Notes under the pieces: model-generated
What the model was told of the DNA's origin: nothing
The model's database searches: none
The model's input: the letters and a program-made list of their open reading frames with translations, nothing else
Source: an uncultured Anaerolineales bacterium
GTDB taxonomy: Bacteria; Chloroflexota; Anaerolineae; B4-G1
Assembly: GCA_964474655.1 (NCBI GenBank)
Contig: CAYYTU010000002.1
Span: forward strand, 64,095 to 128,094
Length of the DNA: 64,000 bases
Direction: 5' to 3'
Part shown: positions 394-47,283 of the stretch, piece after piece
How positions within the stretch are numbered: the stretch's first letter is position 1
How the letters are laid out: every line of letters starts with the position of its first letter
Made by a program: the position numbers and the translations under genes

Positions 394-3300
394 CTAATCT
401 TCCGCGGTCTCACCGTCGCCATCGCCGCCGTCTGTCGGCGGCTGGGATAGCTCCTGAGCGCTGCCCAGGCGAGCGAAGGTAGGCCGCCCCAAGGCCGTGC
501 CCAGCTCACGTACAGCCGCCCGCACGATGGCATCCGGGTCAGTAAAGCCACGCACGTGGGCCGTGATCTCGCGCAGCGTCTCCTCCCGGCGGGCGCGGGC
601 CTGCGCTCGCTCCAGCAGGCGACGGCTCGCAACAACAGGGGCGGCGAGTGTCACCAAGGCCCGGTAGATTTCCCGTTCCCGCTCGCTGAACTGGTGTGGC
701 TCATCCCAGGAAAGGGTCACAAGGCCCGCCCATCGCCCGACCTGCGTCAAAGGAATGATCGCCACCGCACGGACGCCGAATTGTTGGAGGAAACGCTTGA
801 CATCCCCATCAATTCGCTCGTCGTGCGCCAGATCAGAGACGAGCAGCGGGCTATGAGGCTCGCCTTCCCACAGACGGGTGACGGGGAACTCGGCGAGTGG
901 AAGATGCCGGCCCACCGACTCTTCCAGTGCTCCCCCTCGACGCCAGACGGCCACCGTAGTCAGGCCCGTGGGTTCGCCTTGCTCATCAAGGTCGACGTAA
1001 GAGAGTTTCGCATCAAAAGCGCCGGATTCGATGGCCGTCCGTGCCAAAGCTTGGAGCAGATCCTCTTTGGTATCGGCCTCGTTGAGCTCCCGGCTGATCT
1101 CGTACAACATCTCAGCTTCGGCCAGCGCATCCTGCGTCTGCTCAAACAAGCGAGCATTCTCAATCGCGGTAGCCACCTGATCGACCATCGTCTGGAAGAC
1201 AGTGACATCCTCCTCGGAGAAGGCGGCCGCCTCGGTGCTCTGAACGGTCAACGCGCCGATGATCTCGCCACGGGCGGTGATCGGAAGCGCCAGCTCGGAG
1301 CGCGTCTCCGGCAGATAAGGATTATCAAAGCGGGCAGCCTCGTCGCCCACGTCCAGCGCGATACGGGCTTCCCCCTCGGCGACGCAGCTACCGACCATTG
1401 AGTCGCCGCCGACCCGCAACTTATGCCCGTCCTCCAACATCTGGCGTCCGGCCTCGCCGGTGCCTGTGCGCAAGACGGCCCATTCGCCCGGCTCGCCCGT
1501 CCACTCACCGGTCTCATCGACCATAAAGAGCCCGACGTAGTAGAGGTCGAAGCGCTCACGGACCGTATCGGCCGTGCGCCGAATCAGTTCATCGGGGTCG
1601 AGGATGACGCCGGTCGAGCTAGCCACCTCGGCCACGGCTGCCAGCTGGCGTGCGCGCTTCTCAATCTGCTGAGCGGCCAAGCGCTGCTCGATGTAACTTT
1701 CGAGCCGCCGGACGACGCCCCCTAGCATAGCGCTCTCCTCGTCGATGAAATCCCGATCCTCTTCGTAAGCGACGTAGAGATGACCGGCAGTCTCGCCAGA
1801 GATTCGCAGCGCCGAGACGACGTGACACGACAGCTCAAGGGCCTGGGGCTGACCATACACTTGCTCCTCAAACTTGATGGCGGTCACGCAAACTTCCGGA
1901 TACCGCATCGCCGAAGGAATACGCCCAGCGACCCACTGGAGCAAGTCGGGGATCGAGGGCTCCTCGGCTATGTACTGGCCCACGTCAGTCAGGCAGTTGA
2001 GCTCCTTAACGCGTTCGTTGAGCATCTGCTCGGCGCGTACGCGCTCGGTGATATCCTTTGTAAATCCCAGGAAGCGCGTATCGGACAGTTTGACCGCATC
2101 CACAGTCCAGTATCTTTCGGCTCCATCCTTCCTGATGAACTTGAAATCTCCGGTGGCCTTGCCCGTCTCAGTGAGTTGCTGGAAATGGTCCCCCGCCTCC
2201 GCCATACTCTCAGGAGGTAACAGATCGACGATATGCATTTCCAGGAGTTCTTCGCGGCTGTACCCCGTAATACGACAGGCCGCCTCGTTGACCTCCAGGT
2301 ATCGCCCCTCCTCGTCGGAGATGAAAATGCCATCGGGAGCGTTGTCGATGTAGCTTCGGTATCGCTCCTCGCTCTGCTGCAGCGCCTTCTCAGTCTCCTT
2401 GAGGTCCGTGATGTCCAGGAAGGTGCCAATCAATCCGCCCACGCTGCCATCGGGGTTCCGGAACGTGGTCTTGTAGAATACAACATCCCGGATCGATCCA
2501 TCAGCGTACTCAATCGGGGCCTCATAAGATTCTGTGCACGGATTGTTAAGCATCTCCATATCCAACTCGTGATAGAGCTCGGCCATTTCTTGATCGGGGG
2601 TTATATCGTAGACCGTCTTACCTTTCACATCCTCACCGGGCATACCCAGATACTCCAGGAAAGCCTCGTTGCAGCCGAGGTAGACCCCCTCTGCATCCTG
2701 GTAAAAGATCGGATTGGGTATGTTGTCGACGATGGTGTCCAGGAACTGTTGGGATTCTTGGACTTCGGCGAGCAAGTTGGTGCTCTCAATCGCGCTGGCG
2801 ATCTGCCCGGCCAGACCAAGCAACATCACCTGATCCTCTTCGGTCAGGGCGCCGGCCTGGTCGCTTTGGACGTCGAGCACGCCCAGCACCTCGTCGCGCA
2901 ATTTGATCGGCACTGCCAGCTCGCCCTCCGTCTCCGGCAAGTCTGGATGCGGCTTCCAGTGCGGATCGGCGGTGACGTCGGAAGCCAGCATCGGCTCTCC
3001 GGTAGCGGCAGCGGTGCCGACGACCCCCTCCCCGTAGGGCAAATGGTGCTCGGCCGCCTTCATCTTATCGCCGATCTCTCCATAGCCCTCGACCACCCGC
3101 ATCGCTTCGAGGTCCTCATCGTAGCGGAAGATCTGGACGTGATAATAGCCCAAGCGTTCCTTGACCAGCGTGACGACACGCCTATAGAGCGAATCCAACG
3201 CCGGGGCCCCGGCAATCTCCTGCGCGATTTCGGTGGTGAGCTCCACCTGCTGAGCGCGGCGCTCCAACGACTCCTGAATCTGTCGCTCCAACTGTCGGCG

Positions 3301-5220
3301 CTCGGCGTTTGCCAGCACCTGCGCCACCTGATCGGCGATAGCCCCGGCAAAGCTCAATTCGTCGGGCCTCCACTCACGCGGTTCGCCAACGTGCTCGTGG
3401 CACACGACGCCGACCGTCTCGCCGGTCATCCGAATCGCCGAGTCCAGCATTGAGGTAATCCCTAGCGGTTCCAGATAATCCTCGGCAAACTCGCTGGTGC
3501 GCGGATCGGTGCGAGCGCGATCGGCGTCGATCGTCCGCTCAGTCGTCACTGCCGAGAAGTAAGCGGGGTAATCCTCCGCCTCAAGGACGACGCCCTCGGT
3601 GTGAGTTTCCGACGTGCGTTCGAAGAGATCCTGGCACGTTATCGCCCGCTGATTCTCATCCAGCATCCAGATACTGACCCGTTCGACGTCCATCGTTTCG
3701 GCCACTGTCTCCGTGATAGCTGATAGGGCCTCCTCCCAATCGCCGCTCACGACAGCGTCGTGGGTAGCCAACTCGGCGATAGCATGCTGTTGCCGCTGGA
3801 CGCGCTCCAATCGAGCCTGCTGCGCTCTCTCCGTCCGCTTGCGATCAAGGGCGCTGACAAACGTTTCGCCCACCAGATGGAGAAGGGTCGCGTCATCCTC
3901 AGACCAGGCCCGCTCCTCCTCCACCGCGTCAAACCCCAGGAATCCCACCAACTCACCCTGGTACATAGCGGGGACGACGATGAGCGATTGAATGCCCTCC
4001 GATTCAAACTCCGCCTTCTCGATCCTGGCTTCGTCGGGCATATCGGCCACGCGAGGCACCAGAACATCCTCATGGTTACGAAGCTTCTCCATCAGCCATG
4101 GGAACTGGTCGCTGGGCACTTCCTGCAAGTCGTCAATGGCGGACGCAATACCTTCAGCGCACCATTCGTGAGTATTGCTCATCTGCTCCCCATCCTCGGA
4201 GAATAAGAAGAGATAGCTGCGATCCGCCTCCGTGAACTTCCCAATATCCCGCATGGCCCGGTCGATCTCGACATCCACCGCCTGCGGCTTTACATTGACG
4301 AACCGCGTGGAGATGTTGGCGATGAGGTCCTCGAATTCAGCGCGGTACTCCAACGACCGCTCCGCTTGTTTGCGCTCGGTCACGTCGCGGATGATGGCCA
4401 GCACTTCATCCTCGCCGCTGACGACCATTCGGGCTTCGTAGTCGCGCAGCACATCGTCTTCCATACGGGGCAACCGGTACTCATAGATCGCCGGTTGACC
4501 CGAAGCCAGAACTTTCTCTATATGCTCATTGGTGAGCTGAGCGACGTGCGGAGGCAGAACGTCCTCTATATTCTGCCCCAGGAAAGCCCTCGGGGGCAAG
4601 GCCAGATCGCCTCTGCCAGCGTGGAAGTCGATGAAGACCCCCTCCCGATTCAGTCGGAACATCAAGTCGGGAATAGCCTCAAGCAATGTCTCCATCTGGG
4701 CCTGGCTCTGCTGCAACTCCTCTTCCGCCCGACTACGTTCGGTGATATCGGAGATGAAGCCCTCCAGGGCCACCAGCTCGCCGTCGTCCGAGAAGACACC
4801 CTGCCCGCGCTCCCAGACCCAGCGGGGCTCACCTTCAGCGTCTCTGATGCGATAGGTGACCTGGAAAGGCTCTTTTTTCTCAACGCCAGCCTGGACTACC
4901 TCCCACACGAGGTCCTGGTCGTCCGGATGGATCAAATCGCCATAAGCCACCAGACGGCTACCGATCAAATCCTCAGGGGCATAGCCGGTCAAGTCCTCGG
5001 CCCCTTCGCTGACGAACGCCATCGGCCAATCGGGCTCGTTGCGGCAGCGGTACGCCATGCCCGGCAAGTTGCTCATCAGCCTCGAAAGCCGACGATGGCT
5101 TTCCAACAACTTTTCCCTCGTCAATTCGCGCCCGGTGAGCTCTTCGGTCATACTTTCCTCCTCGATGGGGCCGGAGCCCTCATTCCGAACTTCCCGTTCA
5201 GGCCTCTCATTATCCATCAT
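394..5220 (-). CDS. Large cytoplasmic multi-PAS / multi-GAF signalling protein (1608 aa) with no recognisable output domain. Carries the conserved C-terminal tail module shared with the GAF paralog array.
   Basis: Six-frame ORF. Several PAS-like segments at the N-terminus, for example LMFRLNREGVFIDFHAG and DITERKQAE. Several GAF domains with the LDVQS / NARLFEQ signature. C-terminus reads REETLREITAHVRGFTDPDAIVRAAVRELGTALGRPTFARLGS followed by a DG-rich tail. Start ATGATG has GGGAG 8 nt upstream. Confidence 0.8.
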   Translation of the reverse strand: MMDNERPEREVRNEGSGPIEEESMTEELTGRELTREKLLESHRRLSRLMSNLPGMAYRCRNEPDWPMAFVSEGAEDLTGYAPEDLIGSRLVAYGDLIHPDDQDLVWEVVQAGVEKKEPFQVTYRIRDAEGEPRWVWERGQGVFSDDGELVALEGFISDITERSRAEEELQQSQAQMETLLEAIPDLMFRLNREGVFIDFHAGRGDLALPPRAFLGQNIEDVLPPHVAQLTNEHIEKVLASGQPAIYEYRLPRMEDDVLRDYEARMVVSGEDEVLAIIRDVTERKQAERSLEYRAEFEDLIANISTRFVNVKPQAVDVEIDRAMRDIGKFTEADRSYLFLFSEDGEQMSNTHEWCAEGIASAIDDLQEVPSDQFPWLMEKLRNHEDVLVPRVADMPDEARIEKAEFESEGIQSLIVVPAMYQGELVGFLGFDAVEEERAWSEDDATLLHLVGETFVSALDRKRTERAQQARLERVQRQQHAIAELATHDAVVSGDWEEALSAITETVAETMDVERVSIWMLDENQRAITCQDLFERTSETHTEGVVLEAEDYPAYFSAVTTERTIDADRARTDPRTSEFAEDYLEPLGITSMLDSAIRMTGETVGVVCHEHVGEPREWRPDELSFAGAIADQVAQVLANAERRQLERQIQESLERRAQQVELTTEIAQEIAGAPALDSLYRRVVTLVKERLGYYHVQIFRYDEDLEAMRVVEGYGEIGDKMKAAEHHLPYGEGVVGTAAATGEPMLASDVTADPHWKPHPDLPETEGELAVPIKLRDEVLGVLDVQSDQAGALTEEDQVMLLGLAGQIASAIESTNLLAEVQESQQFLDTIVDNIPNPIFYQDAEGVYLGCNEAFLEYLGMPGEDVKGKTVYDITPDQEMAELYHELDMEMLNNPCTESYEAPIEYADGSIRDVVFYKTTFRNPDGSVGGLIGTFLDITDLKETEKALQQSEERYRSYIDNAPDGIFISDEEGRYLEVNEAACRITGYSREELLEMHIVDLLPPESMAEAGDHFQQLTETGKATGDFKFIRKDGAERYWTVDAVKLSDTRFLGFTKDITERVRAEQMLNERVKELNCLTDVGQYIAEEPSIPDLLQWVAGRIPSAMRYPEVCVTAIKFEEQVYGQPQALELSCHVVSALRISGETAGHLYVAYEEDRDFIDEESAMLGGVVRRLESYIEQRLAAQQIEKRARQLAAVAEVASSTGVILDPDELIRRTADTVRERFDLYYVGLFMVDETGEWTGEPGEWAVLRTGTGEAGRQMLEDGHKLRVGGDSMVGSCVAEGEARIALDVGDEAARFDNPYLPETRSELALPITARGEIIGALTVQSTEAAAFSEEDVTVFQTMVDQVATAIENARLFEQTQDALAEAEMLYEISRELNEADTKEDLLQALARTAIESGAFDAKLSYVDLDEQGEPTGLTTVAVWRRGGALEESVGRHLPLAEFPVTRLWEGEPHSPLLVSDLAHDERIDGDVKRFLQQFGVRAVAIIPLTQVGRWAGLVTLSWDEPHQFSEREREIYRALVTLAAPVVASRRLLERAQARARREETLREITAHVRGFTDPDAIVRAAVRELGTALGRPTFARLGSAQELSQPPTDGGDGDGETAED

Positions 5221-5270
5221 CCCTCAACTCCCTACGTTAAACGCGACATCACTGCGTGGGCCAGCGACGA

Positions 5271-7049
5271 TCAATCGTCCCTCCCGTTTCCATCCCGCTG
5301 CGATGCGTCCTCGCTCCCCAGCCGCGCGAAGGTCCGCGACGTGCCCAGAGCCTTATAAAGCTCATCCAACGCTGTCTGCACGATGCCCTCCACGGTAGAG
5401 GCGCGCCGCATTTGATCCGTGATCTCACGGGTCAATCGCTCCCGGGCGGCGCGGCGCTGGGTGCTTTGATAGAGCCGCGCACTTTCCAGGGCCGCCCCTA
5501 ACTGTTCCGTCAGCGCTTCTAGCAATGAAGTCTCTTCTTTGGACCAATGCGTATCGTCGGGCGACTTGTGCGCTTTGACGGTCCCGATGACCTGATCGCG
5601 CACGACGACGGGGATGGAAAACTCCGGCAAATCCTCTTGAGCCTCATCCATCTGACGACTTCCAGCCGAGAAGACACCCTCTGCATCACAATAATAACTC
5701 AACTCAGCGCGGGCCCGCAATATCTCCGCCCACGCCTCACGGCTCAGATCACCGTAGGCCCGCTGGACCCGCTCCAGGTTTTCCTGTGCTTGCTGGTAAA
5801 GCCGGGTGTTGCTGATCGCCATTGCCACCTGATCGGCCATCGTCTGAAGCACGGTCACGTCACTTTCGGTAAAGGCATCTACCTCGGTGGACTGGACATC
5901 GAGGACGCCAATGATCTCGCCACGCGCCCGCAGGGGCAACGCCGCCTCCGCCCGTACATCAACCCGGTCCGTATCATGGACGAAGAAAGGATCGTCGATC
6001 ACGTCTTGCGCCACGTAGGCCTCTCCCGTTTCGGCGACGTGACCCACCGTGCCCTCCTCCCCCACCCGGAGCCGGAAGTCCTGCTCCAGCGTCTCCCCCA
6101 CGGTCGCACCGGACGCAGCGTGGAGCACAGCCCACTCGCCGGTATCGTCCATCAGGAAAATACCCTGGCGGGAAAAGTCGAACCGCTCGTCGATCAACGT
6201 CACCACGCGTTCCATCAGCGCCGGCACGTCGAGCTCGACCGCAGCGCTGTGGGATACATCGGCGGCGGCTTGAAGATGCCGAGCGCGCTTCGCTTCGACC
6301 GCCATCTGGCGTTCCAGATCGCCATAAAGCTCTTGGAAAGCCCTCCGCATCCGATCCAGGGCCTGCCCAAGCGCCACCACTTCCGACGAGCCTCGAATTG
6401 GAATCGACGTGTCCAGATTCCCATGCCCAATGGCTTCGGCGGCGGCGCCCAGCTCCTTGAGCGACGACGTAGCACGCCGGGTCAAGAGAGCGGTGGTCAG
6501 GACGCCACCCGCGACAACCGCGACGATGGTAAGGACCATCTGGACGATCATCGGCCTAAACGAGGCCCAAAACGGCGTCAGATCAATGACGATCTCCAAC
6601 GTCCCCAGCTGGTCCGTACTCGTAGCAATAGGGCCACACAAAACCAAGTAATTTCTGCTTTCTTGCTGAACTATGTCGCCGCTGGCAAGCGCCTGGGCAG
6701 CCAGGTCCCGGCCAACGTGCTCGTCTAGAGCGGGGTCGAAGTCCTCTATCGCAGCTTCGACGATACTCTCACCCGTCTCATCCCGCACCTCAGCCCGAAC
6801 GGCGTTGACCTTTCCCACCAACTGGCTCAACATGCGCTCCAATTTCAGGTGGTCGGACTCGTAGAGGGGATCAACCATCAACTCAGACGAAAGGGAGAGC
6901 AGGGTACGATTATTCTCCTCCAGCCGTTGCCGACTGGAAAGACGCCCCGCGCGTAAGCCGACAATCAGGAAGACGCCAAGACCCACCACGAGAATACCCC
7001 CCACAACCCAGGAGGCTATCGTGATGAGGCTAAATCGTTTATGCTCCAT
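5271..7049 (-). CDS. Membrane sensor-like protein: 2 TM helices with a periplasmic domain, HAMP, GAF, a half-GAF and the conserved C-terminal tail. No kinase or other output domain.
   Basis: ORF 5271..7070. The tool start is TTG; the first ATG (MEHKRF) is at 7049 and has a GGAG upstream. TM segments are LITIASWVVGGILVVGLGVFLIV and IVQMVLTIVAVVAGGVLTTALL. GAF signature PLRARGEIIGVLDVQSTE. Tail is QRRAARERLTREITDQMRRASTVEGIVQTALDELYKALG. Confidence 0.72.
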   Translation of the reverse strand: MEHKRFSLITIASWVVGGILVVGLGVFLIVGLRAGRLSSRQRLEENNRTLLSLSSELMVDPLYESDHLKLERMLSQLVGKVNAVRAEVRDETGESIVEAAIEDFDPALDEHVGRDLAAQALASGDIVQQESRNYLVLCGPIATSTDQLGTLEIVIDLTPFWASFRPMIVQMVLTIVAVVAGGVLTTALLTRRATSSLKELGAAAEAIGHGNLDTSIPIRGSSEVVALGQALDRMRRAFQELYGDLERQMAVEAKRARHLQAAADVSHSAAVELDVPALMERVVTLIDERFDFSRQGIFLMDDTGEWAVLHAASGATVGETLEQDFRLRVGEEGTVGHVAETGEAYVAQDVIDDPFFVHDTDRVDVRAEAALPLRARGEIIGVLDVQSTEVDAFTESDVTVLQTMADQVAMAISNTRLYQQAQENLERVQRAYGDLSREAWAEILRARAELSYYCDAEGVFSAGSRQMDEAQEDLPEFSIPVVVRDQVIGTVKAHKSPDDTHWSKEETSLLEALTEQLGAALESARLYQSTQRRAARERLTREITDQMRRASTVEGIVQTALDELYKALGTSRTFARLGSEDASQRDGNGRDD

Positions 7050-7086
7050 AAAATGATTCTCCGTCCTCAAACGCCATCAGGTTGGG

Positions 7087-9588: not shown

Positions 9589-9630
9589 AGCCAGCCTCTC
9601 TCATCCCCAACTCACCCAAGACTAAATCGC

Positions 9631-13232: not shown

Positions 13233-13250
13233 CACCGCCTCCAAACGGGC

Positions 13251-15512: not shown

Positions 15513-15513
15513 C

Positions 15514-19060: not shown

Positions 19061-19096
19061 AATGGCTCCGTTCCAAACAACCTCCCAAACCCTCGC

Positions 19097-20104: not shown

Positions 20105-20285
20105 AACACACTTCCCCCAGCCCGGCAATGGGCAAACGAAGCAATTCCAAAGCCTCGTAGACACATCAGATTACCTACAAACGCGTTTACCGAGCGTATC
20201 AACCCCAGCACCATTTACCTTCTTCGCACCTGAGCACACTCTGTGGCATTGAAGGCACTTTCGCAGACGATTCGCTTCGAAAACC
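20105..20285 (-). repeat. Copy B of a ~150-180-bp dispersed leader repeat (parts 1 and 2), in minus orientation immediately upstream of the NMT1-like solute-binding gene.
   Basis: The reverse complement aligns at about 85% identity with 29071..29225. Shared blocks are CGAATCGTCTGCGAA, GCCACAGAGTGTGCTCAG, GAT(A/G)CGCTCGGTAAACGCG and GGTGCTTTGGAA(C/T)TG(C/T)TTCG. Confidence 0.7.
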
Positions 20286-20316
20286 ATCGATTACGCCAGA
20301 ACTTCACGGGCCTGCT

Positions 20317-22068
20317 CTATCCACTCCCATCACTACCGTCCACATCTTCGCCGTCTCCGCGAGGCGCCAGCCGAACGGTGACCGCGGGAAGGTCCATCGC
20401 CTCACGCACCTCCTCGGCGGCGGACTTGAGGACGCTCTCCATATCCAAGGATTCACGCAGTCGAGAGGCAATGTCGCCGACCAGGCGCTCGCGCGCCGCG
20501 CGACGCTGCGATTCGTCCATCAAGCGCAAGTTCTCAATCGTCTGCGCTACTTGCTCAGCCACGGCCTCCGCCATCTCGATCTCCTCCGCCACCCACAGGC
20601 GATGAGGACGCGTATCCCTCAAGGCCATAGTGCCGATCACCTGCCCACGCAGCTTCAAAGGCACGACAAGAGCAGAACACTGAGGTTTGTCCATCGGACT
20701 CTCCGAACGGGCCTCCCCCACAACCACCACGTCGCCCCGTTGTACGACCTGCTCTCGGGCCTGGCGGAGCTCATCGCCAATCTCCAACTCCACGTCCGGC
20801 CGCGTATAATCAACCCGGCCCACCTCCCGATTGGTCAGGAAGCCCTGCCACTCTTCTGCCAAGTAACGCCGATGGATGGCCTCCACCTCTTCCAGCGCCG
20901 CCTCGGTGCGACTAAACAGCTGCGCGTTATCGATGGCAATCGCGACCTGGTCAGCCATCATCTGGAGGGTCTCAACGTCGTCCTCGCTAAAAGCAGCCTC
21001 CTGAGTACTCTGGACGCTCAAAGCGCCCAAAACTTCCCCCCGTGAGCGCAAGGGTAACGCAATTTCCGAATGCGTATGCTCCAGAAGCGGCGGAGCAAAC
21101 CGCGCTGTCTCGTCAACTTTCGGCGTCACTTGAGCCTCACGACGGATGATGGCTTGTCCCACTGTGGTCGTCCCGTCCAGCTGCAATTGATAGTTCATCT
21201 CCTGTAATTCCCGACCGGCCCGGCCGGTCGCCGCCGCTAACGTGACCCCGCTCTGCGCCTCGTCGAGCAAGAAGCAGCCCACGTAATAAACGCCCATCGA
21301 GCTAAACCCCGATTGAACGCGATGAACTACCTCGTCCAACAGACGGTCCGGATCCAGGATGGAAGAGCTGGCCTGAGTGACGCTGAGCGACGAGGCCAGC
21401 TGCTTTGCGCGATGGTGTAACTCGCGCGTGGTCTTTTCCAGATCTGCGGTACGATCTTGAAGGTCCTCCTTCACCTCACGAGCATCGGCCAGCGCTTGCC
21501 CCCACCACCGACTCAGCGTCTGTGTGCTTAGCAACAACGCCAGCACCACGATCAAAAAATCGCCCCCCTCGCCAACCCAGTAACCCAACGTGGTCGAATC
21601 GGAGACATGTAAAGGGACTTTCCCCCAGGCAACAAACAGGGTATTGGTCGCATAAATCACAAGACTTAACCCGGTAAAAGCTGTCCCCAATCTCCGTCCC
21701 AACAAGATGAAGGTCACTGTGGGAAGCAAAACTAACCAGAGCCGCCCGCTGCCCGCCATACCACTGCGGGTGAGGATGAAGGCGCTCATCGTGTAGCCTG
21801 CTATCAAGAACATCAAAGCCCGTGTGCGGTAGTATAAACTCCGCCAGACTAAGGCCACTAAGGCAAGAGCCCAGGCTACAAAGAAAGGCACCATAAAGGC
21901 CAGACGCGCCGATCTTTCAAGACCACCCAGAAAACCAGATCCGATGAAGAAGAGATAAGCCAGCAGAGCGCCCCCGCCGACAACGCCGAGCCACAACAAG
22001 CTGTTCAAGAGCTCGACCCGTCGCTGCTGAACGTCACTCCCCCACTGAGAAATACCTTGTGTGCTCAT
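20317..22068 (-). CDS. Polytopic membrane protein (about 8 TM helices) with GAF, half-GAF and conserved tail. No output domain.
   Basis: 583-aa ORF. GAF signature ALPLRSRGEVLGALSVQSTQEAAFSEDD. Tail is QRRAARERLVGDIASRLRESLDMESVLKSAAEEVREAMDLPAVTVRL followed by GDGEDVDGSDGSG. Confidence 0.75.
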   Translation of the reverse strand: MSTQGISQWGSDVQQRRVELLNSLLWLGVVGGGALLAYLFFIGSGFLGGLERSARLAFMVPFFVAWALALVALVWRSLYYRTRALMFLIAGYTMSAFILTRSGMAGSGRLWLVLLPTVTFILLGRRLGTAFTGLSLVIYATNTLFVAWGKVPLHVSDSTTLGYWVGEGGDFLIVVLALLLSTQTLSRWWGQALADAREVKEDLQDRTADLEKTTRELHHRAKQLASSLSVTQASSSILDPDRLLDEVVHRVQSGFSSMGVYYVGCFLLDEAQSGVTLAAATGRAGRELQEMNYQLQLDGTTTVGQAIIRREAQVTPKVDETARFAPPLLEHTHSEIALPLRSRGEVLGALSVQSTQEAAFSEDDVETLQMMADQVAIAIDNAQLFSRTEAALEEVEAIHRRYLAEEWQGFLTNREVGRVDYTRPDVELEIGDELRQAREQVVQRGDVVVVGEARSESPMDKPQCSALVVPLKLRGQVIGTMALRDTRPHRLWVAEEIEMAEAVAEQVAQTIENLRLMDESQRRAARERLVGDIASRLRESLDMESVLKSAAEEVREAMDLPAVTVRLAPRGDGEDVDGSDGSG

Positions 22069-22158
22069 CCCTTCACCCTCACTTCTTAACCCACAATATC
22101 TTCTTCAATTATCACACAACTCCAAACAGGCCTCCCAACCAGAAACCGAGGCCATAGC

Positions 22159-24159
22159 CTAACGCAACCTCGCATCCACCCTCTCGCTCCTGCCTGCTGC
22201 CGAACCGCCATCACCCTCCAGGTTCAATTCAATCGAGACCTGGGGCACCTTCATCACCCGCGAAAGCTCCTCGGCGGTCGTGTGGAGCGTCCGTTCTATC
22301 GTAGCGGAGCGGCGGATACGATCCACCACCCGCCGCGTCTGCTGCTCCCTTTCCGCACGCCGCCGGGCGTCCTCCAACAGACGCGCCCGTTCCAAAGCCA
22401 CCGAGGCTTGATCGCTGAGAGCCTCATATAGGCGTAACGCTGATTCGGAGAAGGGGCCAGCGGCGTCTCGCAGGACGACCACTTGCCCAATCACGCGCCC
22501 GTGGGTACGGAGCGGGATGTTGACCAGGGCTCGGACGCCGGTGGTCTCGAAGACCTGCTTGGCGCTGTTGGGCAGCCGATCATCATCCTGCACGTCGGAG
22601 ACGGCCCAGAAGCTGCTGACCAGATCAAGGGGAAAAGGGCTTTCTGAGATCGGGAGCCGCACGCCGGGCTGGAACTGGGGCGTGCGATCTCGCCGCCAGA
22701 CGTCCAGATAGAGCAAGGCCTCCGGCGATCCATCCGGTGAAAGCTCGAAAGCGACCACCAGACAGCCATCGGCCCCCGTATCAACCACGGAGGAGACCAC
22801 GGCGTCGGCCACCTCGGAGGGCGTCGTCGCCGTGGTCAGTCGACGGCTGACCTTGTACATCGGCCGCGTCGCCTCCAGCAAGGAGATGCGGCTGGAGATG
22901 CGCCGGGCGTTCTGGATGGCGACTGCGATCTGGTCCGCCAGGCTCTGCAACACCTGGACGTCGGTGGCGTCGAAGGCCGCCACCTGATCGGACTGCACGT
23001 CGAGAACGCCCAACATCTGATCTCCGACGCTCAACGGAAGGGTCACCTCAGAGGCAACATCGGGCAAGAGGGGATGGGGATGATGGATCGCATCCTCCTC
23101 CACGTTGCGCGCGATCCGCACTCGATGGTGGAGGGCGGTCCATCCCACCATACTCGTCTCTGCTACCGGCAAACGGAGCCCTTCGGTCATCAGCTTGGGA
23201 CCGCTCGCCCCGGCGGCGGCCTTCAAATCGACCTGTTCCCCACTCTCATCCAGCAGGAAAATGCTCGCGAAGTAGACATCCAGACGCTCGCATATCAAAT
23301 CCACCGTCTTATGCACCAGATGGTCGGCGTCAAAGATCGACGTAATCGCTTGCCCTACCTCAAAGCTGGCCTCCATCTGCGTCACACGACGACGCAGCAT
23401 ATGCGTGCGCTCCTCCAACCGGGCTTGATGGGCTTCCAAATCCTGCGCCAGCTTCTGGCTGCGGGCCAGCGCGTTCGCCATCCGGGGCACCAGGTAATTC
23501 TGCAACAGCAACAACAACGCGCCCACCAGAAGGAAAAGCAGACTGGTCATCACCCAGGAGGCAGCGTCGCCGGTCTCGCCCGGCGGCGGGACGACCATCC
23601 CCGTTGAATAGGCCCACCCAAATCCCACCAGCGTAAGAAGGGAAAGTCCAAAAGCGATCAGTCCACTTCGATGGTCAAAGAAGAAGGGCGCCACCAGGGA
23701 AAATGCCAGTAAAAAAAGAACACCCCCGCCGCTGCGACCAGCAGTGGATAAGGCCACAACGCCCAACCCATAGAGCACCGTCAACAACGTCCAGACTCGA
23801 ACGTCATAGGAAACGCGAGACCAGAACGTAATCACAGCCAGCCCCGCATATGTGAGCACGTAAACTGGAATCAGCCACAGCCGATCGGAGCGGTAAGCGT
23901 TATAGGTCCCAATGACTACGACCAGACCACTGATCAACAGTAAAATCCGCAGCGCACCGTAGATCAGCCACTCCCGCCACTCTTTCATATCCCCTTCGAC
24001 GCGCTTTCCCATCGCGGATAATAACCCGGCATCCAGGCCCGGCGAAGGCTCCTCTACCTCTGACGGCGGTCCTTCCAGATCCTCCTCGCTTTCTGGCTCC
24101 AGAGGGGGGAAATCGGAGAAAAGCGCCTCCATTGAGTTTTTCAGTCGATCGTCATCCAT
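22159..24159 (-). CDS. Polytopic membrane protein with an acidic N-terminal peptide (MDDDRLKNSMEALFSDFPPLEPE), GAF, GAF-like module and conserved tail. No output domain.
   Basis: 666-aa ORF with GGGAG 11 nt upstream of the ATG. GAF signature LPLSVGDQMLGVLDVQSDQVAAFDATD. Tail is ARRRAEREQQTRRVVDRIRRSATIERTLHTTAEELSRVMKVPQVSIEL. Confidence 0.75.
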   Translation of the reverse strand: MDDDRLKNSMEALFSDFPPLEPESEEDLEGPPSEVEEPSPGLDAGLLSAMGKRVEGDMKEWREWLIYGALRILLLISGLVVVIGTYNAYRSDRLWLIPVYVLTYAGLAVITFWSRVSYDVRVWTLLTVLYGLGVVALSTAGRSGGGVLFLLAFSLVAPFFFDHRSGLIAFGLSLLTLVGFGWAYSTGMVVPPPGETGDAASWVMTSLLFLLVGALLLLLQNYLVPRMANALARSQKLAQDLEAHQARLEERTHMLRRRVTQMEASFEVGQAITSIFDADHLVHKTVDLICERLDVYFASIFLLDESGEQVDLKAAAGASGPKLMTEGLRLPVAETSMVGWTALHHRVRIARNVEEDAIHHPHPLLPDVASEVTLPLSVGDQMLGVLDVQSDQVAAFDATDVQVLQSLADQIAVAIQNARRISSRISLLEATRPMYKVSRRLTTATTPSEVADAVVSSVVDTGADGCLVVAFELSPDGSPEALLYLDVWRRDRTPQFQPGVRLPISESPFPLDLVSSFWAVSDVQDDDRLPNSAKQVFETTGVRALVNIPLRTHGRVIGQVVVLRDAAGPFSESALRLYEALSDQASVALERARLLEDARRRAEREQQTRRVVDRIRRSATIERTLHTTAEELSRVMKVPQVSIELNLEGDGGSAAGRSERVDARLR

Positions 24160-24196
24160 AAGCCCAAGCTCCCAGCCTCAAAACCGTCCCGTGTCT

Positions 24197-24475
24197 CTAT
24201 CGGCGCAATTTGCCGTTTCCCGAATCGGATTGATCGTCATCCCCTCCCCGGGAAGCGAGGGTCTGCCAACCCTGGCGCCACACGCCGCCACTCTCGGCCG
24301 ATTTCTCAGCAGTATGTTCGCGCCCTTTTTCCTCGTCATCGCCGCCAGAGGCACCATGCTCAACCGATCCATCCTCACCATCCCGTGACGAAGCTTCACG
24401 CTCTACCTCCGGCTCCGGAGGGGCGAAGTCAGAAAATAATTGCTCAAGCGAGCGTTTCAGATCGTCCTTAGTCAT
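24197..24475 (-). CDS. Small acidic protein (92 aa). Its N-terminal 23 aa duplicate the N-terminal peptide of the downstream GAF protein.
   Basis: The ATG at 24475 overlaps the parA stop (ATGA). MTKDDLKRSLEQLFSDFAPPEPE aligns with MDDDRLKNSMEALFSDFPPLEPE at 22159..24159. The rest is low-complexity Asp/Glu/Gly/Ser. Confidence 0.4.
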   Translation of the reverse strand: MTKDDLKRSLEQLFSDFAPPEPEVEREASSRDGEDGSVEHGASGGDDEEKGREHTAEKSAESGGVWRQGWQTLASRGGDDDQSDSGNGKLRR

Positions 24476-25332
24476 AATTCAGCCTCGTTAATGCGTCGCC
24501 GGGCGGCCTCGGAAGCTTGCGAAGGGACCTCGGACATCGCAACGTCCCCACCCTCCTCGTCGGCAGGAGACGCGAATTTAGCGATCAATTCGCTGGCGAC
24601 GGCCCGGTACTGCCCCGCGGACCGCGTCTTGGGGGCATACTCGGTAACCGGCAGCCCATAGGCCGGTCCCTCTCGCAGACGGGTGTCCACCTGTATCATC
24701 GTCTCGAACATCGCATCCCCAAAGTGCTTACGGAGGTATTCCAGCACCATCGGGTGAACCTTATTCCGCATATCGTACATCGTCACCAACAGCCGATAGG
24801 CCAGCTGAGGGTTCGTCTTCCGGCGCACCAGCCGCGTCATATCAAGCATCTGGCGGAGCGACTGGATCGCGTAATACTCACACTGGACCGGGATGATGAG
24901 CAGATCGGCCGCCGTCAGCGCATTGACCATCAGGGTACCGAAAGTGGGCGGCGAATCCACCACCACAAAATTGTAAAGCTGATGTCGCGTCTGCGCCAGA
25001 CTTTTCCTCAGCCGATATTCGTAGCCGGGACGCTCATAAAGCACCTTATCCAACACCACTAGCTCCTGATTGGCCGGCGCCAAGTCCAACCCATAGACCT
25101 CGGTCTCGCGCGTGATGGAGGCCAAAGAGTCTTGCCCCACCACCGCATCAGCCACTGTGCCATGTATCGATTCGGGGTCAAAGCCCAAGGAGCCAGTCAA
25201 GTGAGCCTGGGGATCGAGATCCACCATCGTGACCAGCTGCTCTTGCTCCGCCAATGCTCCTCCCAGCGACAGACAAGTGGTCGTTTTAGCCACGCCGCCT
25301 TTGCTGTTTGCAACGGCGATCACGGTCGTCAT
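24472..25332 (-). CDS. ParA/MinD-family P-loop ATPase.
   Basis: Deviant Walker A motif VANSKGGVAKTT. Walker B motif is VVVDSPP. The length of 286 aa is typical. The start overlaps the kinase gene stop by 4 nt. Confidence 0.85.
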   Translation of the reverse strand: MTTVIAVANSKGGVAKTTTCLSLGGALAEQEQLVTMVDLDPQAHLTGSLGFDPESIHGTVADAVVGQDSLASITRETEVYGLDLAPANQELVVLDKVLYERPGYEYRLRKSLAQTRHQLYNFVVVDSPPTFGTLMVNALTAADLLIIPVQCEYYAIQSLRQMLDMTRLVRRKTNPQLAYRLLVTMYDMRNKVHPMVLEYLRKHFGDAMFETMIQVDTRLREGPAYGLPVTEYAPKTRSAGQYRAVASELIAKFASPADEEGGDVAMSEVPSQASEAARRRINEAEL

Positions 25333-27788
25333 CGTTCCTCCTCGCCTACACGGGCACCATCCAAGGCCTCACCTCGCTCAGAACGAGTTTCCACCGGCAA
25401 ACTAAACGTAAAAGTCGATCCTACTCCAACCTCGCTCTCAACCCAGATTTTGCCCCCGTGCATAGCCACAAACTCCTTGCTCAAGGCCAGCCCCAACCCA
25501 GCGCCATCAGGGCGCCGACCATCCCCCAGCTGCCCCTGCTCAAACCGCTCAAAGATGCGCTCCTGATCCTCCAGCGGGATGCCACGCCCGGTATCGCTGA
25601 CGCTGACCAATACCCGTCCATCCTCTGACCAGGCCCGCACGGTGATACTCCCCTGATCGGTGAAGTTGGCCGCGTTCGTCAGCAACTTCAACAAGACCTG
25701 GCGGATCCGCGTTACATCCGCCTGCACGATGGGCAGGTCGGGCTCTATCTCCTGGAGCAGATCGATCTCCTTATCGCGCACCAGAGCGCTGGCGGTCGAC
25801 ATCACGCTGTTGATCATCTCAGATAGATCGAGGTCCTGAAAGTGGAGCTCCATCAGCCCCGCTTCAATCTGGGAGATGTCCAACAAATCGTTGATCAAGC
25901 CCAGGAGGTGCTGGCTGTTGGCGTGGATGATCTTGACGTCCTTCCGCTGCTGATCGTTTAGATCGCCGTCCAGCCCTTTCAGCATCAGGCGAGAGAACCC
26001 GATGATGTTCGTCAGCGGCTCGCGCAACTCGTGGCTCATATGGCCCAGGAAGCGGGATCGGAAGCGTTCCGCCTCGCGCAGACGTCGGGCCGTCTCTTTC
26101 TCCTTCCGGTAGATGCGAGCGTTCTCCAAGGCGATGGTAATCTGATTGGCCACGTTGCGCAGGACAGAGATGGCATCCTCGTCCATCTCCTCCGACTCGG
26201 TGTCCAGGATGTCGAGCACGCCGACGGTCTCATCGCCCAGCTTGAGCGGCAGCGCCGCCTCCACCTGGATATAGGGAGAGCCGAACAAGCCATCGGCCCG
26301 ATCGGAGCCCCAGCGAACGATGCGCGGCTCACCCTTCAGCCCCGCCTCGCCCACTGCTGAACCCTCTCCAAGCGGGACCGGCGCCGCTTTGAGCTCTTTC
26401 ACCCTCTCCCCTCCGCCGGTTCCCTCGCGGAGAAAAGCCTGTTCCCCACTTTCATCCAGCAAGTAAACTCCCACGTAACAATAATCGAACCGATCGTGGA
26501 TCAAGCGCACCACCTCGTGCAAGAGTTTGCTCGGCTCCAGGATCGAGGTCGCCGCCTGGCTGACCTCGACCGTAGCGGCCAGTTGAATGGCGCGACGCTG
26601 AATCTGGTAGTTAGCCCGCTGCAACATCTCCGTACGCTGAGCCACCTTGGCCTCCAGATCGTCGTAGAGGCTTTTCAGATCCGCCGTCATCTTGTTAAAG
26701 ACGTAAGTCAGGATGCCAATTTCATCGCGCGAGGTGACGGGCACCTGCTGATCCAGCTCGCCCTCCGCCACGCTGAGCGCCGACTCCGTCAACCGCACGA
26801 CCGGACGCGTGATCTGCCGCGTCACCACCGCAGCGACGACGGCCGTCCCCAGGGCCACCAAGAGCGTGGCCCCGATGATGGCAGCAGCGACGTTGTCCGC
26901 CGGAGCAAAGGCGGTCTCCTGCTTCTGCTCGGCCACCAACGCCAGCTCCAACGCCGGCATCCATTGATAGACGCCAATGACCGGGTCGCCGGCGTAATCA
27001 TCATACAAGCCCGCCACCCGCTCGCCATCCAGCGCGGCCTCAATGCCCTCGCTGCTCACGACCTCCCCTTGCGGCAGCGCTATGCCATCCTCATCCACCA
27101 GATAGACCCGGCTATCTGATCCCAGCGCTTGGGCCGTACCTAGCTCCTGGGCCAGGTCATCCAGATCAAGCCACCCGACCAGGACGCCTTCGTCCACACC
27201 ATCTGGACCACCAATCTCCTTTGCGACCACAGCCCCTACCGACGCCTCCGGCTCCAGCGTGATCATCCGAAAGATGGTCGTCTCGTCAGGCGTCAACGCC
27301 GGGATAGACGTCTCAACCTCACCCTCCAGCGACGGGTCCGTGGCTACCAAGGTTCGCCCCTGGTCATCAAGGAGAGCCACGCACCGAAAGGCCGTATCTT
27401 GGTCTAGCAACGCGCTCAGGTGTTGGCGCAAGCTGTCGCGAGCGCGCGCTTCGTCGCCTTCTGAACCAGCCTCCGCGGGCGCGTTAGCTTCCAGCAGAGT
27501 CGAGGCTTGCTGCCGCACGCCCGGCACCGCTGCCAGAAGCGCCAGGTGCTCAAGATGGCCTTCGCCCCAACACTGGATCTGAGACTCAGTCAGCACGGCC
27601 ACAGAGGAAAGTTTGGCGATAACTTCACGGCGGAGGTCACGTCGTTCGCGTCGAGTGGCGTACCAACTGATCGCACTGAGAGGCACAATCGCCAGGAGCA
27701 AGAAGGCCGTCAGCAACGTCCGGCCCAGCCCCCCGCGCATCCCCGTGGTAGGTACGCGAGGCCCTTTTGTCGACTCCGGCGTTGCCAT
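25329..27788 (-). CDS. Sensor histidine kinase: 2 TM helices, periplasmic Cache-like domain, HAMP, GAF, HisKA and HATPase_c. It is the only kinase in the cluster.
   Basis: H-box is HMSHELREPLTNIIGF. ATPase motifs are DTGRGIP and GAGLGLALSKEFV. GAF signature is ALPLKLGDETVGVLDILDTE. The Cache block is shared with the gene at 16148..19060. Confidence 0.85.
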   Translation of the reverse strand: MATPESTKGPRVPTTGMRGGLGRTLLTAFLLLAIVPLSAISWYATRRERRDLRREVIAKLSSVAVLTESQIQCWGEGHLEHLALLAAVPGVRQQASTLLEANAPAEAGSEGDEARARDSLRQHLSALLDQDTAFRCVALLDDQGRTLVATDPSLEGEVETSIPALTPDETTIFRMITLEPEASVGAVVAKEIGGPDGVDEGVLVGWLDLDDLAQELGTAQALGSDSRVYLVDEDGIALPQGEVVSSEGIEAALDGERVAGLYDDYAGDPVIGVYQWMPALELALVAEQKQETAFAPADNVAAAIIGATLLVALGTAVVAAVVTRQITRPVVRLTESALSVAEGELDQQVPVTSRDEIGILTYVFNKMTADLKSLYDDLEAKVAQRTEMLQRANYQIQRRAIQLAATVEVSQAATSILEPSKLLHEVVRLIHDRFDYCYVGVYLLDESGEQAFLREGTGGGERVKELKAAPVPLGEGSAVGEAGLKGEPRIVRWGSDRADGLFGSPYIQVEAALPLKLGDETVGVLDILDTESEEMDEDAISVLRNVANQITIALENARIYRKEKETARRLREAERFRSRFLGHMSHELREPLTNIIGFSRLMLKGLDGDLNDQQRKDVKIIHANSQHLLGLINDLLDISQIEAGLMELHFQDLDLSEMINSVMSTASALVRDKEIDLLQEIEPDLPIVQADVTRIRQVLLKLLTNAANFTDQGSITVRAWSEDGRVLVSVSDTGRGIPLEDQERIFERFEQGQLGDGRRPDGAGLGLALSKEFVAMHGGKIWVESEVGVGSTFTFSLPVETRSERGEALDGARVGEEER

Positions 27789-27813
27789 ATCCCCTCAATT
27801 CACCGGCCCACAG

Positions 27814-28230
27814 CTAATCTAACGACCAGACAGATTCTCCTTGAAGAATGTCACGAACTTGATCGGGGAAACGATCGGGGTCGAGAGGTTTGCCGATGAA
27901 GCCGTCGAAGCCGGCCTCACGCGCACGCTCCATATTATCCATCGAAGCATCAGCCGTCACCGCGACGATAAGCGTATCCTCAAAGCGAGGATGGGAGCGT
28001 AATTCGCTCAATGCCTCGTAGCCATCCGCCTCCGGCAAGAAGATATCCATCAAGATCAAGTCAACTTTCGGAAGCGCGTCAGCAAACTCCAACACCTGCC
28101 ATCCGGAAGCTTTCCACTCACAATCCTTCACGCCCAAGTAGGCCAGCAGGCGCGTGATCAACACAAAATTCTGGAAGTTATCCTCGACGACGACAACCGT
28201 CGCATCCTCAGGTCGCACACTCATAATCAC
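27814..28230 (-). CDS. Single-domain response regulator (CheY-like receiver).
   Basis: Receiver motifs: VVVVEDN, LILMDIFLPEADG, and a conserved Lys in GFIGKP. The GTG start at 28230 overlaps the upstream regulator's stop. An alternative ATG is at 28224. Confidence 0.8.
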   Translation of the reverse strand: MIMSVRPEDATVVVVEDNFQNFVLITRLLAYLGVKDCEWKASGWQVLEFADALPKVDLILMDIFLPEADGYEALSELRSHPRFEDTLIVAVTADASMDNMERAREAGFDGFIGKPLDPDRFPDQVRDILQGESVWSLD

Positions 28231-28610
28231 CCACCGACCCGTTCCAGCGCCTCTTCAATCTGACGCGGAAGCCGATCGATGTCGATCGGCTTGGGGATGT
28301 AACCATCGCAACCGGCCTTTAACGTCTTCTCACGATCGCCTTTCATCACGTTGGCCGTAACGGCCAGGATGGGGACGCCCTCCAGCGCGGGCACCGCGCG
28401 AAAGCGCCCGGCCAGGTCATAACCGTCCACCTCCGGCAAGTTGATATCCAGCAGGATCAAATCGGGGTCCACCTGTGAAGCTTCCTCTAACCCAGAGCGC
28501 CCATCGACGGCCTCTAAGACAGTATATCCTTCCGCCTCCAACACCCGCCTCACTAACAACCGATTCTCCGGGTTGTCCTCCACATACAATATTCGAGCTT
28601 TATCGCTCAT
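28227..28610 (-). CDS. Single-domain response regulator (CheY-like receiver).
   Basis: Motifs are ILYVEDNPENR, LILLDINLPEVDG and GYIPKP. The preferred start MSDKARIL at 28610 has GGGAGAGG 6 nt upstream. The tool start at 28625 has no ribosome-binding site. Confidence 0.8.
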   Translation of the reverse strand: MSDKARILYVEDNPENRLLVRRVLEAEGYTVLEAVDGRSGLEEASQVDPDLILLDINLPEVDGYDLAGRFRAVPALEGVPILAVTANVMKGDREKTLKAGCDGYIPKPIDIDRLPRQIEEALERVGG

Positions 28611-28662
28611 CAACGCCTCTCCCATGCATCTGTTTCAGGCCGGCTTAAGGAATTCCAAAGCT

Positions 28663-28730
28663 TTAAGCGATTATATCAAATTAAGCAATCAGCGACAAGA
28701 GGTGGTTTGTTACAAATTAGTTACAATCAA
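28663..28730 (-). promoter_or_regulatory. Probable sigma-70-type promoter with an extended -10 (TTGTCG, 17-nt spacer, TGATATAAT) and upstream direct repeats TTGTAAC-N4-TTGTAAC. It drives the RR-RR-kinase-ParA-GAF operon.
   Basis: On the minus strand: -35 is the reverse complement of 28693..28698, extended -10 is the reverse complement of 28670..28678, and the repeats are at 28709..28726. This AT-rich island sits in a GC-rich context about 50 nt upstream of the regulator start. Confidence 0.55.
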
Positions 28731-35556: not shown

Positions 35557-35602
35557 GCGGGACGCCAGACCGGGACGCGAGGAGCCTATAACACGAGGAG
35601 GT

Positions 35603-39883: not shown

Positions 39884-39893
39884 TCTCTCTCCT

Positions 39894-47235: not shown

Positions 47236-47283
47236 AATCGCCCTCCTGATTCAAAACGTGTTGCGTAGTGCGCAACCTTTCTG

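Follow-up and report, generated by a model that had tools for sequence, protein, structure and literature searches.

In chemosensory arrays, paralogous receptors with 4HB_MCP, dCache, sCache, PAS, or HAMP inputs share one non-enzymatic cytoplasmic module, and their operon encodes one kinase together with single-domain CheY-like receivers. A ParA-class ATPase can lie inside such operons: ParC and PpfA are encoded in chemotaxis operons and position chemoreceptor arrays, and the partners of ParA/MinD ATPases, which bind via an N-terminal peptide, are encoded beside the ATPase (PMC10241942). In the stressosome (RsbR paralogs, RsbS, and RsbT), variable sensing ends are joined to a conserved C-terminal assembly domain, and the proteins presumably assemble together, with one kinase under their control. 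The DNA considered here, a 64,000-nucleotide stretch from an uncultured Anaerolineales bacterium (contig CAYYTU010000002.1, positions 64,095 to 128,094; called the window throughout), carries a minus-strand gene array that resembles both systems in these respects: paralogous receptors, here called T proteins, place variable sensing ends on one conserved module and are encoded with a histidine kinase, two CheY-like receivers, and a ParA-class ATPase. The array is one copy of a conserved signalling operon of Anaerolineae and Thermoflexia that is built around the T proteins.

Each T protein consists of a variable input module on a conserved cytoplasmic chassis, without any enzymatic or DNA-binding output. 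The chassis comprises HAMP or a coiled coil, one full GAF domain, a reduced or extra GAF domain, and a terminal stub of about 55 amino acids (aa). An earlier description made from the letters of the window (the sequence-only reading) counted eight membrane GAF paralogs; there are seven (599, 833, 624, 753, 970, 583, and 666 aa), and a 1608-aa cytoplasmic protein brings the family in the window to eight. Named by their lengths, and with transmembrane segments abbreviated as TM, they are encoded as follows.

22159..24159, minus strand: T666, a MASE11 polytopic sensor, two GAF domains, and the terminal stub (from Pfam, alignment, and hydropathy)
20317..22068, minus strand: T583, a MASE11/MASE6-like polytopic sensor, GAF, reduced GAF, and stub
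16148..19060, minus strand: T970, a polytopic N-terminus, dCache_1, TM, HAMP, GAF, reduced GAF, stub, and an acidic tail
13251..15512, minus strand: T753, a sensor with 5-6 TM, GAF, reduced GAF, a third GAF, and stub
11370..13244, minus strand: T624, a 4HB_MCP sensor, HAMP, GAF, reduced GAF, and stub
7087..9588, minus strand: T833, 2 TM with a periplasmic domain of about 350 aa without a family assignment, an interrupted HAMP, GAF, reduced GAF, and stub
5271..7070, minus strand: T599, 2 TM with a periplasmic domain of about 135 aa, HAMP, GAF, reduced GAF, and stub
394..5220, minus strand: T1608, a cytoplasmic protein with four to five PAS and five GAF domains and the same terminal stub

The cytoplasmic parts of the eight proteins share 30-50% mutual identity, and the first GAF domain (GAF1) is near-uniform, with the motif LP.TRSE.ALPL..RGE.IG.LDVQS. 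This GAF subtype had been picked out in the sequence-only reading and is seen in the alignment; the topology classes given there (2-TM, polytopic, and cytoplasmic) agree with hydropathy, and Pfam confirms HAMP and GAF in the paralogs as well as the Cache/HAMP/GAF kinase, the ParA ATPase, and the two receivers. The claim that the paralogs lack an output domain also holds. Pfam finds no kinase, cyclase, GGDEF/EAL, phosphodiesterase, HD-GYP, STAS, MCPsignal, or DNA-binding domain in the eight T proteins of the window, and no NCBIfam family model covers them. A hidden output domain was considered and rejected, as neither Pfam and NCBIfam run on all window proteins nor Pfam run on 64 relatives revealed one. 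These relatives, randomly chosen from 64 loci, all have GAF domains (64/64) and no output domain by Pfam, MCPsignal and STAS included. Their inputs are HAMP (29), dCache_1 (16), MASE11 (12), and periplasmic-binding-protein domains (4), and more rarely dCache_3 (4), Cache_3-Cache_2 (3), PAS (2), and 4HB_MCP (1). The C-terminal 150-200 aa or so, where a known output domain would have overturned the sequence-only reading, contain none, but the region is not empty: it holds the reduced second GAF or a full third GAF, followed by the conserved stub. An AlphaFold2 (AF2) model of the cytoplasmic part of T599 (mean predicted local distance difference test, pLDDT, of 78) gives the order coiled coil, complete GAF, long helix, four-stranded reduced GAF, long helix running into the stub, short helix, and disorder.

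All eight T proteins of the window end in this stub, with the consensus RL.EEtQRRAaRErL..eIt..mR.slD.e.vL.TAVREl..aL....v.v.L, at the following positions.

5301..5486, minus strand: terminal stub of T599, ESARLYQSTQRRAARERLTREITDQMRRASTVEGIVQTALDELYKALGTSRTFARL (from the alignment of the eight copies)
442-627, 7090-7275, 11385-11570, 13290-13475, 16259-16444, 20350-20535, and 22207-22392, minus strand: the equivalent stubs

In the eight-copy alignment the residues R, L, R, A, R, E, R, and E are invariant, and among 104 homologues the stub is one of the most conserved regions of the family. A profile of the eight window copies of the stub, searched against PDB, matches phytochromes and cyanobacteriochromes, namely SyB-Cph1 (8w26, E=1.3e-12), 6oap (1.3e-10), 2lb5 (2.4e-9), and NpR6012g4 (6bhn, 3e-7). 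It aligns with the N-terminal 45 residues or so (about 8-53) of their GAF domains and additionally matches the GAF-to-PHY junction of 8w26. Searched against 1.84 billion representative proteins, the same profile matched 11,873; the top matches are proteins of 1300-2800 aa with 6-12 internal matches each, and these internal matches cover the junction and the beginning of every following GAF in tandem-GAF proteins, one named example being from the cyanobacterium Leptolyngbya. On these profile matches the stub is a fragment of a phytochrome-type GAF domain, predicted to correspond to α1, α2, and β1; the complete GAF fold with the chromophore pocket and the bilin-attaching Cys is absent from it. 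Because a complete GAF precedes the stub in T753, T666, and T1608, the stub seems to act as an independent terminal module. A circularly permuted GAF, in which the stub would complete the reduced GAF2, was rejected: in those same three proteins the stub follows another, complete GAF, and AF2 models it as continuing the last helix with no fold-back. A few proteins extend beyond the stub. T970 has a 36-aa acidic extension past it, and 85-110 residues follow it, against the usual 12 or so, in the ORFs (open reading frames) at L012:12247-14562, L016:11055-13040, L027:17166-19964, and L054:12059-14080 (L numbers denote loci of the census described below).

The sequence-only reading had proposed looking for orthologous arrays in related genomes, and such arrays are present. 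A scan of one genome per species gave at least 535 matches, and 77 loci were examined. They belong to Anaerolineae, Thermoflexia, or unclassified Chloroflexota, including an Anaerolinea thermophila bin and a Thermoflexus bin, and the best relatives have 46-50% identity. More than 500 matches among the scored candidates are named only "GAF domain-containing protein" and come from Chloroflexota/Anaerolineae metagenome bins. The exact window sequence was matched only in Logan assemblies of SRR7048219. For a census, six-frame ORFs of the 77 loci, of L001-L003, and of the window (81 loci) were compared with the stub profile and with window queries. This yielded 458 stub-bearing ORFs, 4-11 per locus of about 20 kb, in which the distance from the end of the stub to the stop codon has a median of 12 aa; the multi-gene loci are fully co-directional in 77 of 77 cases. 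One syntenic locus, at 47% identity, has the order REC-REC-dCache/HAMP/GAF kinase, five T genes, ParA, and at least three further T genes. T599 has full-length orthologues at 42-64% identity, one of them encoded in this syntenic locus, and since individual paralogs are retained in this way the sensor types appear to be old and maintained. The suggestion that the T genes are decaying, independently transcribed remnants of kinases, which the sequence-only reading had named as an outcome that would undo it, has nothing in its favour beyond the missing output domain. It is effectively refuted by this conservation: the eight window genes are long, intact ORFs, the 458 family ORFs in 81 loci are likewise intact with the stub just ahead of the stop codon, the full-length orthologues persist, and the intergenic space is too small for lost domains.

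The genes for phosphotransfer stand at the 5' end of the array.

28227..28625, minus strand: REC1, a stand-alone CheY-like receiver (Pfam Response_reg, E=1.9e-26)
27814..28230, minus strand: REC2, a second stand-alone receiver (Pfam Response_reg, E=2.6e-19), with a GTGA overlap with REC1
25329..27788, minus strand: sensor histidine kinase of 819 aa, with a 2-TM dCache sensor, HAMP, GAF, HisKA, and HATPase_c (Pfam)

The acidic pocket, phospho-acceptor Asp, Thr/Ser, and Lys expected of receivers are conserved in REC1 and REC2 across 21 loci. The REC1 ortholog group (21 loci) retains ED, DLILMDIN, AVTAN, and KP, and REC2 forms a separate conserved ortholog group in 21 loci (CEWK.SG, GKPLDPDRFPDQ). 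The kinase has clear HisKA (E=5e-19) and HATPase_c (E=1.5e-29) matches and a visible H-box, MSHELREPL, as expected of a HisKA kinase. In 23 loci REC1 and then REC2 stand at the 5' end of the array, followed by the kinase in about half of them and by a T protein of about 1300 aa in the rest. Several lineages close the array with a multi-GAF hybrid kinase (three to five GAF domains, HisKA, HATPase_c, and two REC domains). The statement that the array has a single transmitter is thus right for the window but not for other loci, where the terminal hybrid kinase is added or the 5' kinase is replaced by the 1300-aa T protein. At L064:18427-20154 and L030:14183-15979 the terminal hybrid kinase is followed by a pyridoxal phosphate (PLP)-dependent enzyme of the PALP family fused to a C-terminal receiver (Pfam); the 470-aa ORF at L051:8755-10164 is assigned to the same fusion from its position and a receiver match only. 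The pathway could have an enzymatic output in this fusion, which the part of the array within the window lacks.

The kinase and the T proteins have the arrangement sensor-HAMP-GAF in common at 30-34% identity (T970 at 30% over 540 aa of sensor, HAMP, and GAF), and the T proteins outnumber the kinase. These features would suit kinase-derived decoys that form inactive heterodimers through the HAMP-GAF chassis and so lower kinase activity in response to many inputs, in line with the second alternative of the sequence-only reading, in which the paralogs were decapitated kinases acting as co-receptors. Such kinase-derived decoys are improbable, because their C-terminus matches phytochrome/cyanobacteriochrome GAF N-termini and inter-GAF junctions and not a DHp/HisKA domain. 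A stub that is a DHp/HisKA remnant is ruled out by the PDB profile search, by the search of 1.84 billion proteins, and by Pfam, which gives no HisKA match at E up to 5. The reduced GAF2 and the stub are also missing from the kinase, so that the helical registers beyond GAF1 differ, and T proteins persist in lineages without the 5' kinase.

A different possibility is that the T proteins are independent sensors, each binding a small molecule or second messenger in its GAF domain or acting on partners elsewhere, and that the array reflects tandem duplication and co-regulation. Binding of small molecules is a classical role of GAF domains, and GAF1 is closest in fold to those of fRMsr, PtsP, and cAMP-binding Lcd1; Foldseek and the PDB profile search confirm the GAF fold and give no indication of a ligand. 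Coupling of T proteins to the kinase is putative, and 14 T genes in a row without a kinase, within about 40 kb, also fit independent action. This explanation is nevertheless doubtful. The array opens with the REC1-REC2 pair and, where its ends can be seen, has a kinase at one of them or at both; each of the 77 loci is strictly co-directional with tight coupling; and the shared conserved stub and near-uniform GAF1 across unrelated inputs indicate one common downstream partner. In addition, GAF1 alignments show no cNMP-type or Cys-based catalytic motif. An fRMsr-like enzyme, suggested by the top structural matches of GAF1, was likewise rejected, as the alignments contain no conserved catalytic Cys.

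The ParA gene and its neighbours provide the strongest mechanistic clue, one that was absent from the sequence-only reading.

24472..25332, minus strand: ParA/MinD-class ATPase of 286 aa (Pfam AAA_31, E=2.5e-45, with CbiA and ParA), with an ATGA overlap with the kinase
24197..24475, minus strand: orf92, an acidic, low-complexity, Gly-rich ORF of 92 aa that is translationally coupled to ParA and is called in Logan contig L003
24085..24159, minus strand: N-terminal peptide of T666, MDDDRLKNSMEALFSDFPPLEPE, the second copy in the window of the ParA-associated motif

The deviant Walker A motif of the ATPase is SKGGVAKTT in the window, nqKGGVAKTT is kept in 19 loci, and the signature lysine is present. 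The window holds a genuine two-component core and a genuine ParA-class ATPase. ParA lies within the array in 21 loci from many lineages, at varying positions, co-directional and often translationally coupled. In 21 of 21 ParA loci the gene after ParA, which frequently overlaps the ParA stop codon, begins with a conserved peptide, L..xL[ED]xLF[SA]D. Its carrier is mostly a polytopic T protein and sometimes a PAS protein or a hybrid kinase, and since it is carried by whatever gene follows ParA it behaves as a portable tag. The peptide reads, for example, MTNKDLSSQLEGLFAD, MKEEELNRSLESLFSD, or MADNDLTDQIEDIFSD, and the N-terminus of orf92, MTKDDLKRSLEQLFSDF, is the conserved peptide in the window. 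A regular expression for the peptide has 25 matches in 7,977 ORFs (1.3 M residues), 21 of them adjoining ParA. As the expression was written after the sequences had been inspected, a hidden Markov model (HMM) trained on ten loci served as a further check. It ranked held-out cases 8, 14, 16, 18, 20, 22, and 24 of 7,977 ORFs, with orf92 at rank 8 when trained on other loci, and it missed three divergent variants of the peptide. On our reading the peptide is a likely candidate for a ParA-partner motif. The first 25 residues or so of orf92 and a W-R-Q motif copy the N-terminus of T666, and in homologues W-R-Q precedes the first membrane helix. Because it has the W-R-Q motif as well, orf92 looks like a truncated 5' duplicate of T666; it may be either such a duplication or a small soluble ParA adaptor, resembling McdB and other small disordered adaptors in size and composition.

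It has to be asked whether ParA and the downstream peptide are instead unrelated to signalling, as a partition ATPase or a remnant of a mobile element, together with the HTH_17 gene at the head of the array, that lies there by chance. The best NCBIfam matches of ParA are plasmid partition ATPases (RepA and ParA_partition), all under the cut-off, HTH_17 has an excisionase-type fold, and the left 46 kb of the window are somewhat poorer in GC. A chance insertion is very improbable, however, given the recurrence of ParA inside co-directional arrays in 21 loci. The cluster contains no ParB, integrase, or replication genes, the gene following ParA is always an array member with the special N-terminal peptide, and HTH_17 occurs in only 3 of 81 loci. 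A mobile element or defence island was rejected for the lack of an integrase, ParB, or replication gene and the rarity of HTH_17 among the loci.

Taken together, it is quite possible, at somewhat less than even confidence, that the operon encodes an array of many receptors that pass their signals through protein contacts to the operon kinase and receivers, with ParA positioning the array. This proposal starts from what the loci display directly, that is, their gene and domain content, the lack of known outputs, the homology of the stub, the conservation of the operon, and the peptide adjacent to ParA. The T proteins would be parallel dimeric receptors, and because chemoreceptor- and kinase-type inputs sit on a shared GAF-stub module without an output, they would have to signal solely through contacts of that module. 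Their targets would be the transmitters of the same operon, as the kinases and the two receivers are the sole transmitters consistently encoded with them: the dCache-HAMP-GAF histidine kinase and, through it, REC1 and REC2, with the terminal multi-GAF hybrid kinase as an additional or alternative target in other lineages. ParA would bind the N-terminal peptide of the next-encoded protein (here orf92 and T666) and thereby position or partition the receptor cluster, as ParC and PpfA do for chemoreceptor arrays; the ATPase and its tagged neighbour suggest that the receptors form a positioned cluster. The exported solute-binding proteins would probably serve as ligand-presenting co-sensors for neighbouring receptors.

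Several points weigh against this proposal. We infer all of the interactions and the direction of signal flow, and the many-sensors, one-kinase assembly put forward in the sequence-only reading would likewise be a deduction. The 5' kinase is not universal, as in about ten loci REC1-REC2 is followed directly by the T protein of about 1300 aa; the confidence is set where it is for these two reasons. In the adjacent loci L017 and L053 (contig CAZCAI010000005.1, about 40 kb) the 14 T genes in a row come without a kinase, so the family can expand to 14 genes and the transmitters can be distant. The AF2 confidence of the stub is moderate (pLDDT 58-68, then below 50), no strand is modelled for its third element, and its strong conservation could stem from a structural capping role and not from partner binding. 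A positive charge is described for the known partner peptides of ParA/MinD (PMC10241942), and the post-ParA peptide, which is hydrophobic and acidic, contains few Lys/Arg residues, and those are not conserved. Finally, co-transcription of the array is predicted from gene spacing only. As a separate observation, neither a receiver nor ParA is found among the 14 stub-bearing genes of the L017 and L053 stretch.

In an ORF map of the 64-kb window, the minus-strand ORF series runs unbroken from 28959 to the left edge. Overlaps of 4 nucleotides (nt) occur at four junctions (REC1/REC2, kinase/ParA, ParA/orf92, and T624/SBP580), and the other intergenic gaps are mostly 1-50 nt, the two largest being 90 and 152 nt; the tight packing described in the sequence-only reading is therefore borne out. 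The strong promoter placed there near 28663 has its counterpart in the best sigma-70-like, promoter-like site of the region. The limits given for the array, 394-28730, were too narrow: the HTH_17 gene extends to 28959, and a further gene starts at 345 and leaves the window, so T1608 is not the last. Apart from the count of paralogs, the description in that reading is largely correct, but three genes were missed, namely HTH_17 (28738-28959), the 92-aa ORF (24197-24475), and DUF6989 (15514-16224). No terminator-like sites were found between array genes, the counts being at or below the expectation from shuffling. The right flank (29.3-45 kb) holds unrelated plus-strand genes, and the array accordingly starts at its HTH_17/REC1 end. 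The remaining features of the array are as follows.

28738..28959, minus strand: HTH_17 (excisionase/MerR-like) DNA-binding protein of 73 aa (Pfam HTH_17, E=5e-17; the ORF is also called in Logan contig L003)
28670..28698, minus strand: promoter-like site TTGTCG-17-TATAAT with a TG extension, sigma-70-like, upstream of REC1
19097..20164, minus strand: NMT1/SsuA-like periplasmic solute-binding lipoprotein of 355 aa (Pfam NMT1, E=1.2e-56; NCBIfam SsuA_fam)
15514..16224, minus strand: DUF6989 membrane protein with four TM, between T970 and T753 (Pfam DUF6989, E=3.9e-33)
9631..11373, minus strand: SBP580, an exported protein of 580 aa that distantly resembles solute-binding proteins (SBP_bac_8, E=0.004, under the Pfam cut-off)
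1..345, minus strand: 5' part of a further array gene cut by the window edge, whose homologues are PAS/GAF proteins of 1000-1300 aa with the stub

The site upstream of REC1 has 10 of 12 matches, a consensus match only, and the top score within 19-29.4 kb; a second promoter-like site (29038-29009) lies upstream of the HTH_17 gene, which is the first on this strand and heads the operon. The HTH_17 protein is possibly a local regulator, and as a homologue occurs in just one other lineage (L065) it appears to be a lineage-specific addition.

Of the two orphan solute-binding proteins named in the sequence-only reading, the NMT1 protein is firmly assigned, and homologues of it lie inside arrays in 13 of 81 loci; the 580-aa protein is weakly backed, with a match to PDB 5iai (the solute-binding protein of a sugar ABC transporter) at E=1.7e-8 and homologues in 3 loci. 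Both are orphans in that Pfam finds no transporter (permease or ATPase) genes beside either of them in the array. The longest ORF of the NMT1 gene begins 20 codons 5' of a typical lipoprotein signal (MKLRRWSVGILLMTLLVGTFTAC), and its true start is probably the internal Met21 (MKLRRW...TAC); the gap to T583 would then be about 210 nt, wider than any other in the array. The DUF6989 gene occurs in the window locus only among the 81 loci, and its true start is probably farther downstream because the longest ORF overlaps T970 by 77 nt.

Homologues of the partial gene starting at 345 belong to the T-protein family in other loci. Its first 115 aa or so are a conserved N-terminus in PAS/GAF/stub proteins of L045, L024, L006, and L009; this region has no Pfam match and possibly represents a new type of cytoplasmic sensor domain. 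A sensor of the RsbR or photoglobin type was considered for this gene and is at most a possibility: Pfam gives no match and the photoglobin paper offers no direct link. Elsewhere in the window, the GC content rises from 0.57-0.64 (1-46000) to 0.66-0.71 (46000-64000), and the plus strand encodes a DUF11/CARDB repeat surface protein of 1012 aa (35372-38410). On the minus strand, 38594-42088 holds three neighbouring genes, whose products are a class-III aminotransferase, a tandem AsnC/NirDL-like protein of the siroheme-decarboxylase type, and a radical-SAM/SPASM enzyme; the second and third point to an alternative haem biosynthesis.

Sediments, sludge, and hot springs harbour abundant Anaerolineae, whose means of sensing the environment are, to our knowledge, almost entirely undescribed. 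With up to more than 30 kb and 7-14 receptors per genome, the operon is probably one of their main sensory systems. The sequence-only reading did not recognize the architecture as a described system, and no published description of the T family, the stub, or the operon was found in the open-access full-text literature; a two-component operon that combines a novel receptor family with ParA coupling appears to be undescribed. If the receptors do converge on one kinase and ParA positions them, this would be an independent evolutionary solution to the integration of many inputs, with GAF domains in place of the chemoreceptor hairpin, and the array would add a new class of cargo to those of ParA/MinD ATPases, with a recognition peptide that is easy to test. 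In the stub, part of a GAF domain has been maintained by strong selection as an independent module. Even if convergence fails, hundreds of membrane receptors without known outputs raise the question of how signals leave the sensor. A bolder suggestion, unlikely though worth stating, is that the T proteins make up a signalling lattice of many receptors, the third such kind in bacteria beside chemoreceptor arrays and stressosomes. In it, GAF-GAF-stub would replace the hairpin of methyl-accepting chemotaxis proteins in forming the lattice and coupling it to the kinase, the stub, as a domesticated piece of a phytochrome-type GAF, would be the shared docking site, and a dedicated ParA would recognize the short N-terminal peptide of one receptor and so position and partition the lattice along Anaerolineae filaments.

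Compared with described systems, the T array differs in each case in a defining part. Branched two-component pathways with auxiliary or kinase-less sensors, such as the SBP-dependent LuxPQ/TorTS and kinase modulation of the RetS-GacS type, also have sensing proteins that modulate a separate histidine kinase by contact, and orphan periplasmic binding proteins beside the sensors, but their auxiliaries are few and usually kinase-like or simple binding proteins, in contrast to a GAF-stub family of 7-14 members. Tandem-GAF phytochromes and cyanobacteriochromes are homologous at the stub and at the GAF-to-stub junction, which correspond to their inter-GAF junction and first 45 or so GAF residues; T proteins, however, have the stub alone and always at the protein end, lack a chromophore pocket and conserved Cys, and show nothing that suggests bilin binding or light sensing. 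As in ParAB, McdAB, MinDE, and PomXYZ, a deviant Walker A ATPase is followed by a gene with an N-terminal peptide and then a disordered acidic linker, but the peptide is hydrophobic and acidic and the presumed cargo is a polytopic membrane receptor; NCBIfam established no orthology of the array ParA to a characterised ParA subfamily. Unlike the stressosome, the array has no STAS domain or RsbT-type serine kinase, its receptors are mostly membrane-bound, and its phosphotransfer parts are His-Asp. Unlike chemosensory arrays, it has no MCPsignal, CheA, CheW, CheB, or CheR (CheA and CheW are absent from the operon and from syntenic loci with precomputed Pfam), its conserved module is GAF-GAF-stub, its kinase, of the classical membrane-bound HisKA type, carries a sensor itself, and motility is not implied. 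The system is most like a chemosensory array or a stressosome, yet it fails the defining tests of both.

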